A program made the translations under genes and the position numbers. From assembly GCF_003334305.1 (NCBI RefSeq), contig NZ_QOWS01000014.1: DNA of 64,000 nucleotides; one strand, 5' to 3'. This DNA is from Escherichia coli. GTDB taxonomy: Bacteria; Pseudomonadota; Gammaproteobacteria; Enterobacterales; Enterobacteriaceae. Under the pieces are notes generated by a model. That model saw only the letters and a list, made by a program, of their open reading frames with translations, made no database searches and was not told where the DNA came from. Of this stretch, positions 27,474-27,500 are shown one piece after another (positions within the stretch are counted from its first letter, which is position 1; each line of letters starts with the position of its first letter).

Positions 27474-27500
27474 GGAAGAAAATCGGGTGCCGCAGCACCC
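27474..27500 (-). terminator. Intercistronic hairpin between ahpC and ahpF (putative partial terminator)
   Basis: On the minus strand GGGTGC-tgcg-GCACCC followed by GATTTTCTTCC, inside the 170-bp ahpC-ahpF spacer. Confidence 0.5.

Follow-up and report, generated by a model that had tools for sequence, protein, structure and literature searches.

In the spacer between rplL and rpoB of E. coli, a leaky attenuator is said to lie inside the operon between two unequally needed cistrons, together with an RNase III site. The design of rplL-rpoB is like that of the ahpC-ahpF spacer but the genes and sequences differ, and it is for rplL-rpoB that a termination efficiency has been measured. Other intercistronic stem-loops, such as the REP element of malE-malF and the puf hairpins of Rhodobacter capsulatus, reportedly shield the upstream cistron from 3′ exonucleases and so lead to an excess of the upstream message. 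For ahpC and ahpF themselves, a monocistronic ahpC transcript and a bicistronic ahpCF transcript are said to occur in Pseudomonas aeruginosa (work by Ochsner in 2000) and in Bacteroides fragilis. Hairpins also remain at the 3′ ends of the phage T7 mRNAs released by RNase III (PMC9032294). There it is RNase III that creates the 3′ end, a likeness to the ahpC-ahpF module.

The closest described system is the E. coli ahpC-ahpF spacer itself. Low-level hydrogen peroxide in E. coli is removed mainly by AhpCF, whose two proteins rank with the most abundant of the cell. AhpC acts as a decamer but AhpF as a dimer, and one operon must therefore supply the two in unequal amounts (Gordon, Cameron & Pfleger 2017, mBio, PMC5371410). 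The same study reported an RNase III site at position 639695 (NC_000913.3) between the two genes. The coverage at this position was 4 reads in each wild-type replicate versus 3,598 reads in the rnc mutant, making it the second-strongest new site, and the transcript was cleaved in vitro by purified RNase III. The half-life of ahpC was ~14 min in the wild type and ~6 min in the rnc mutant, whereas the stability of ahpF was the same. The authors proposed that an exonuclease-blocking hairpin is left 3′ of ahpC and tied it to the AhpC:AhpF stoichiometry. The element described here is this known RNase III module together with an RNA 3′ end that has already been mapped, and the main facts are published for K-12. 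The ahpC-ahpF spacer offers a compact RNA-level example in which a terminator-type hairpin may define and protect the upstream 3′ end and an RNase III hairpin splits the cistrons.

The locus was studied in a 64-kb stretch of E. coli DNA, referred to as the window. Many complete E. coli genomes, with ahpC and ahpF annotated at this place, match a 401-nt stretch spanning the site at 100% identity. Both genes lie on the minus strand. The ahpC coding sequence (28129..27566; 187 aa; stop codon TAA at 27568..27566) appears in the list of open reading frames and matches E. coli records annotating ahpC at 100% DNA identity. The ahpF coding sequence (27395..25830; 521 aa) starts with MLDTN, and its ATG at 27395 is the start annotated in RefSeq. 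The intercistronic spacer (27565..27396, minus strand) is 170 nt long, the length given in the initial annotation, and it contains three separate hairpins, HP1, HP2, and HP3. The spacer RNA has a minimum free energy of -59.2 kcal/mol (z = -3.8), and 0 of 200 shuffles was equally stable. A Shine-Dalgarno sequence for ahpF, AGGAG, can be read at 27406..27402 on the minus strand; it lies outside HP3 and is unpaired in the centroid fold. A terminator at the end of the operon, 3′ of ahpF (25800..25775, minus strand), has a 10-bp stem followed by UUUUUAU and served as a comparison element. It sits between ahpF and a convergent uspG-like ORF and is missed by the perfect-stem rule used in the scan below.

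An N-terminal extension of AhpF from ATGs at 27425..27417 was considered and rejected. The sequence ATGAUGAUG in the 3′ arm of HP3 makes the mechanically called ahpF ORF longer by ten codons (531 aa), and in E. coli ATGATGATG (27425..27417, minus strand) shares the reading frame of ahpF, but it is probably not a start site. The RefSeq protein starts with MLDTN. Furthermore, the distance from the upstream ATGs to the true ahpF start is 30 nt in E. coli versus 29 nt in Citrobacter werkmanii, in which these ATGs are out of frame. The 29-nt distance indicates that the stretch between the upstream ATGs and the ahpF start is not coding.

HP2 is the hairpin to which the initial annotation had drawn attention. 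The reported minus-strand sequence GGGTGC-TGCG-GCACCC is indeed present at 27500..27485 and is followed by GATTTTCTTCC at 27484..27474. The stem gains two further pairs (U-A and C-G) beyond GGGTGC/GCACCC and is in fact 8 bp long. In other words, the complete hairpin occupies 27502..27483 on the minus strand and reads UCGGGUGC-ugcg-GCACCCGA, with 6 G-C pairs and a UGCG tetraloop. The U-tract that follows it, UUUUCUUCC, occupies 27482..27474. In a 36-nt context, HP2 folds with -16.6 kcal/mol (estimates span -15.8 to -16.6; z = -3.9), and 0 of 200 shuffles was as good. A lenient terminator pattern showed no enrichment in a 3-kb region (6 found versus 4.3 ± 2.0 expected). A strict scan of both strands of the 64-kb window accepted perfect stems of 8 bp or more, 6 or more of the pairs being G-C, if the loop measured 3-8 nt and TTTT lay no more than 1 nt away. 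It found 4 sites including HP2, versus 0.07 ± 0.36 in dinucleotide shuffles. The combination of hairpin and U-tract at HP2 is not due to chance. The other three sites lie at window positions 4449-4472 (minus strand), 22063-22090 (plus strand), and 62810-62836 (minus strand), and have perfect 10-11 bp stems followed by U6-U7.

HP2 shares three features with intrinsic terminators. Its G+C-rich stem-loop falls within the usual dimensions (a stem of ~5-14 bp and a loop of 3-8 nt), its position is that of a terminator, and RNA 3′ ends listed for K-12 fall in its U-tract. The U-tract itself is borderline. Compared with the ~7-9 nt of a typical tract, it has four U's and is interrupted by a C, with U at 6 of 9 positions overall. 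This U-run is shorter than those of the other three strict sites in the window and than those of homologues without HP3 (U6-U8), and a matching A-tract upstream of the stem is absent. Because there are only four uninterrupted U's and no upstream A-tract, termination at HP2 may be very inefficient.

Evidence that RNA ends at HP2 comes from Term-seq in K-12. Window positions 27440-27530 are 100% identical to MG1655; both the 3′-end data and the RNase III data are from K-12, which has an extra ERIC insert upstream of HP2. Supplementary file 1 of Adams 2021 (eLife, PMC7815308) lists plus-strand 3′ ends at 639668 in LB at OD 0.4 (17,950 reads), at 639670 in LB at OD 2.0 (7,690 reads), and at 639668 in M63 (8,697 reads), with the surrounding sequence given as ...TTCGGGTGCTGCGGCACCCGATTTTCTTCC... 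In NC_000913.3 coordinates, the HP2 stem spans 639646-639665 and UUUU spans 639666-639669. Positions 639668 and 639670 correspond to window positions 27480 (the third U) and 27478 (the C after UUUU), placing the 3′ end in the U-tract of HP2 itself, +3 to +5 nt after the stem. Term-seq had been named in the initial annotation as a check for an ahpC-only RNA, and these published ends, seen in three conditions, provide it. Transcripts that contain only ahpC and end at HP2 exist in K-12.

Adams 2021 classed the site as 'orphan' (a long 3′ UTR or 5′ UTR), and there it appears in the supplementary table only, with no discussion or mechanism. The three Adams 2021 lists show no plus-strand 3′ end between the HP2 site and the next entry (643,497 or 657,545 by condition), a region that includes the ahpF terminator. 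Likewise, these lists have no Term-seq end at the RNase III cut (63969x). Supplementary file 2, which gives the Rho regions defined with bicyclomycin, has no entry for ahpC or ahpF; the authors caution that sites may be missed. Neither gene is mentioned in the supplements of Yan 2018, papers dealing with rtcBA, UPEC, Spx, or stress in P. aeruginosa yielded nothing on the ahpC-ahpF spacer, and Conway 2014, where it deals with ahpC, discusses three promoters only.

HP3 (27471..27416, minus strand) is a long imperfect hairpin of ~20 pairs with a lower stem AUGCAAGC/GCUUGCAU plus extensions, and it folds with -23.0 kcal/mol (z = -2.5). It begins ~12 nt downstream of HP2, and its end is ~20 nt short of the ahpF start codon. 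Converted to window coordinates, the RNase III site at 639695 becomes position 27453. This places the cut within the 5′ arm of HP3 and 25-27 nt beyond the ahpC 3′ ends mapped by Term-seq. HP3 has about the two turns of double-stranded RNA typical of an RNase III substrate, and RNA of this site was cut by the purified enzyme in the published assay. HP2, at 8 bp, is too short as an RNase III substrate. Gordon 2017 (PMC5371410) concerns the same locus and the same sequence, and covers cleavage, ahpC stabilisation, and the blocking-hairpin proposal. However, it centres on HP3; in its accessible text HP2 is not named, the ahpC 3′ end is not mapped, and intrinsic termination is not considered. The initial annotation had proposed a possible partial terminator that sets the AhpC:AhpF ratio. 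Its idea of an excess of ahpC through an ahpC-only RNA at HP2 is well founded, but attenuated read-through alone is at best a part of the mechanism, and it overlooked the neighbouring RNase III hairpin, the part of the mechanism that experiments have demonstrated.

How is the 3′ end of the ahpC-only RNA made? HP2 is probably the 3′-terminal stem-loop of this mRNA, the end arising through leaky intrinsic termination, through trimming from the RNase III cut, or through both. On this model, a part of the RNA polymerases coming from the ahpC promoters would stop at the U-tract and a part would read on into ahpF. In E. coli, the read-through RNA would fold HP3 ~12 nt further on, and RNase III would cut it there. 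The 3′-to-5′ exonucleases would then trim the upstream product to the base of HP2 and stall. Both routes would lead to the same long-lived ahpC RNA ending 3-5 nt past the stem, with ahpF left on a separate and less abundant RNA. The outcome would be more ahpC message than ahpF message, matching an AhpC decamer to an AhpF dimer, and almost no intact bicistronic RNA would be expected in wild-type cells.

The module has two marks of an RNA stabiliser: the upstream RNA that accumulates ends directly after a stable stem-loop, and an endonuclease cut lies downstream of this stem-loop. By the published half-lives, the upstream cistron is more stable when processed (14 min with RNase III versus 6 min without it), an effect for which HP2 itself may be required. 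The rnc mutant is pleiotropic, so the change in half-life could be partly indirect. The Term-seq ends are compatible either with termination or with the trimming of a processed RNA, and the method cannot separate the two. The ends lie nearer to the stem than a typical untrimmed termination point, which fits trimming and does not identify their origin. Trimming back to HP2 would also fit both the lack of a listed Term-seq end at 63969x and the near-nil wild-type coverage at HP3. The role of HP2 as an exonuclease barrier, the true termination of some polymerases at HP2, and the share of each route in the ahpC-only RNA are inferred.

One rival model is that HP2 is a partial intrinsic terminator and nothing else, so that a fixed fraction of polymerases ends at the U-tract and RNase III acting at HP3 affects the read-through RNA only. 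The terminator anatomy of HP2, the 3′ ends listed inside its U-tract, and the absence of ahpC and ahpF from the Rho-region table agree with this model. However, it predicts the same ahpC molecule with or without rnc, yet the reported half-life drops by more than half when RNase III is missing, and the rnc mutant shows heavy coverage (3,598 reads at 639695) past HP2. This coverage also means that the block at HP2 is only partial. Termination alone is thus an unlikely account of the ahpC-only RNA. If most ahpC RNA ended at HP2, a drop in half-life without RNase III would be unexpected. The short interrupted U-tract and the coverage past HP2 in the rnc mutant also favour processing as the main route in E. 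coli. The drop in half-life suggests that much of the ahpC-only RNA in E. coli is a product of processing and not of termination at the short U-tract.

The opposite model is that no termination occurs at HP2 in E. coli, that all ahpC-only RNA comes from HP3 cleavage followed by trimming, and that HP2 only protects the product. The RNase III-dependent stability of ahpC and the near-zero wild-type coverage at HP3, both as published, speak for it, as do the interrupted U-tract, the listed 3′ ends lying just 3-5 nt from the stem, and the lack of a listed end at the cut, which implies rapid trimming. An 8-bp G-C-rich stem followed by UUUU usually causes some termination, and this counts against HP2 being a barrier only. 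Conservation of the U-tail among relatives points the same way, as described below, and a role in protection alone is possible but doubtful.

HP2 is conserved. Among complete E. coli genomes, 5,423 of 5,426 carry the HP2-HP3 segment. From other species 80 ahpC loci were fetched, and 23 spacers from 22 Enterobacterales genomes were aligned, E. coli being represented by two spacer forms. All 23 aligned spacers have an HP2 homologue of the form (A/U)CGGGUGC, a loop of 3-8 nt, and GCACCCG(A/U), followed by a U-rich tail; the genera include Escherichia, Citrobacter, Enterobacter, Leclercia, Superficieibacter, Mangrovibacter, Pantoea, Erwinia, Brenneria, Providencia, and Arsenophonus. In this alignment, 93.2% of the cells are paired, versus 24-44% when the 3′ partner is slid. 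Both-sided changes occur in 5 of 9 pairs, and none of 500 shuffles matched the observed values. For example, the arms read CGGCUGC/GCAGCCG in Enterobacter sp. Ag1 and CGGAUGC/GCAUCCG in Erwinia endophytica, both compensatory changes. The HP2 structure is real and selected.

The same alignment tells RNA from DNA. Since HP2 is a perfect DNA palindrome whose arm sequence is unusually conserved, the inverted repeat could in principle act as DNA, either as an operator bound by a regulator that controls an ahpF promoter or as a copy of a repeat, and have no role in RNA. Nine cells of the alignment, however, are G-U or U-G, which pair on the ahpC-sense strand only and are A-C mismatches on the other strand; this makes RNA, not a DNA palindrome, the selected and functional form. 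The loop varies from 3 to 8 nt, which would alter the spacing of half-sites, and the RNA 3′ ends listed for K-12 map to the tail of the hairpin. A DNA operator was rejected on the sense-strand G-U pairs and the variable loop length. As for a repeat, the HP2 motif occurs once in the 64-kb window, and Rfam covariance models at E <= 1 matched no family within the ahpC-ahpF spacer. With no second copy in the window, HP2 was rejected as a repeated element, and its terminator-type U-tail also sets it apart from a REP. A function as a DNA element is extremely improbable.

The stem of HP2 is conserved as sequence, beyond what pairing demands. The pairwise identity is 0.85 in the stem, compared with 0.54 at four-fold degenerate sites of ahpC, 0.64 in the U-tail, and ~0.3 in the loop and flanks. 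The arm CGGGUGC/GCACCCG is almost unchanged in at least three Enterobacterales families (e.g. Enterobacteriaceae, Erwiniaceae, and Morganellaceae). A generic terminator requires pairing, and its stem sequence is free. Given this, the sequence-level conservation leaves a slim chance that HP2 is recognised sequence-specifically by a protein or a small RNA, in which case read-through into ahpF would be regulated (e.g. during peroxide stress) rather than being a fixed leak. The conservation of the stem as sequence is a point absent from the accessible parts of both K-12 papers. The U-tail, at 0.64 against ~0.3 in the neighbouring spacer, is itself conserved, and a U-tail is needless for an exonuclease barrier, which argues against HP2 having a protective role only.

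Two spacer designs were found among the relatives, another point that the accessible parts of the two K-12 papers do not contain. In the first design, the spacer is 68-79 nt long and lacks HP3 (Erwinia, Pantoea, Brenneria, Providencia, Arsenophonus, and Enterobacter sp. Ag1). Most of these relatives, including Erwinia, Pantoea, Brenneria, Arsenophonus, and Enterobacter sp. Ag1, have the same hairpin with U6-U8, placed ~20 nt before the ahpF ATG, which is the layout of a leaky terminator. With the hairpin so close to the start, there is no room for an intergenic promoter, and ahpF can be reached by read-through only. These sequence comparisons argue that leaky termination may be the ancestral job of the hairpin. 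The U6-U8 homologues before ahpF would be expected if HP2 were a terminator only, and relatives that lack HP3 and retain the hairpin with a better U-tract are hard to reconcile with a barrier only.

In the second design, a hairpin with a short U-run is combined with the RNase III hairpin HP3. Across the 12 species with HP3 (the Escherichia/Citrobacter/Enterobacter clade), the lower stem of this hairpin, CCAUGAUGCAAG/CUUGCAUGAUG, hardly changes, and covariation is therefore uninformative for HP3. This invariance is tighter than pairing alone demands, and HP3 is absent where the spacer is 68-79 nt long. The longest U-run has a mean of 3.6 in the clade with HP3 and 5.7 in relatives without it (Mann-Whitney p = 0.006, kinship ignored). 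A U-tract score of the d'Aubenton-Carafa type did not separate the two designs (p = 0.86). Shorter U-runs in the HP3 clade thus appear as a trend only in these sequences. That the weakest U-runs occur in the HP3 clade, with the same caveat of kinship, is not what termination alone would lead one to expect.

The length of the spacer varies within E. coli, from 128 nt in O157:H7 F6667 to 170 nt in the window and 244 nt in K-12 MG1655. The differences are confined to the HP1 region, upstream of HP2, and HP2 and HP3 are unchanged in all forms. In the window, HP1 (27553..27525, minus strand; UUUCGCGC...GCGCGAAA) has no U-tract, folds with -13.5 kcal/mol (z = -4.3), and falls in this variable region. 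At the place where the window has the short HP1, K-12 has an insert of 74 nt with an ERIC/IRU core (CGCTCACCCCGGTCACTTACTTGTGTAAGCTCCCGGGGATTCAC); the insert is absent from the window. O157-type strains have a shorter and different sequence in the HP1 region. Citrobacter werkmanii, Enterobacter sp. Bisph1, and Superficieibacter likewise have an ERIC-bearing spacer of ~240 nt. One record, NZ_CP045741.1 (L001; E. coli DH5alpha), departs from every other E. coli once the 3′ arm of HP2 is reached (~560-600 in L001); it lacks HP3, and a different AhpF accession and a different start are annotated in it. The cause is a mistake in assembly or a genuine deletion carried by that stock.

Beyond the Enterobacterales, a hairpin followed by a U-tract is found in the ahpC-ahpF spacer of Pseudomonas, Comamonadaceae, Snodgrassella, and Alcanivorax among the fetched loci. 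These hairpins are mostly unrelated in sequence to HP2, and we know of no RNase III module for any of them. That Pseudomonas, Comamonadaceae, and Snodgrassella also have a hairpin with a U-tract between ahpC and ahpF is a further observation in keeping with termination as the sole activity of the hairpin.

A Comamonadaceae ahpCF operon has a hairpin nearly identical to HP2, loop included (CGGGUGCCUGGCGCCCG). In Diaphorobacter caeni (L077), it reads GCCCGGGUGCCUGGCGCCCGGGC and is followed by U7. The same CGGGUGC core hairpin with a U-rich tail is present in the spacers of L043 and L058 (Variovorax) as well as L077, where the tail is U7. Over the first 200 aa, AhpF is 74% identical to that of E. 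coli in Diaphorobacter (L077) and 71% in a Comamonas MAG (L083), compared with 49-57% in Pseudomonas and Vibrio. The sequences suggest that the Comamonadaceae operon may have been transferred together with its hairpin, and it is unlikely that the likeness of the Diaphorobacter hairpin reflects sequence-specific recognition of the stem.

A second RNA feature lies on the other side of ahpC. The dsbG-ahpC intergenic region contains a match to Rfam STnc70, an enterobacterial sRNA, at window positions 28274-28367 on the minus strand, the same strand as ahpC (44.1 bits versus a gathering threshold of 40). Term-seq 3′ ends are listed at MG1655 position 638796 in all three conditions of the Adams 2021 lists, and this position equals window position 28278, the 3′ end of the STnc70 match, 149 nt upstream of the ahpC ATG.
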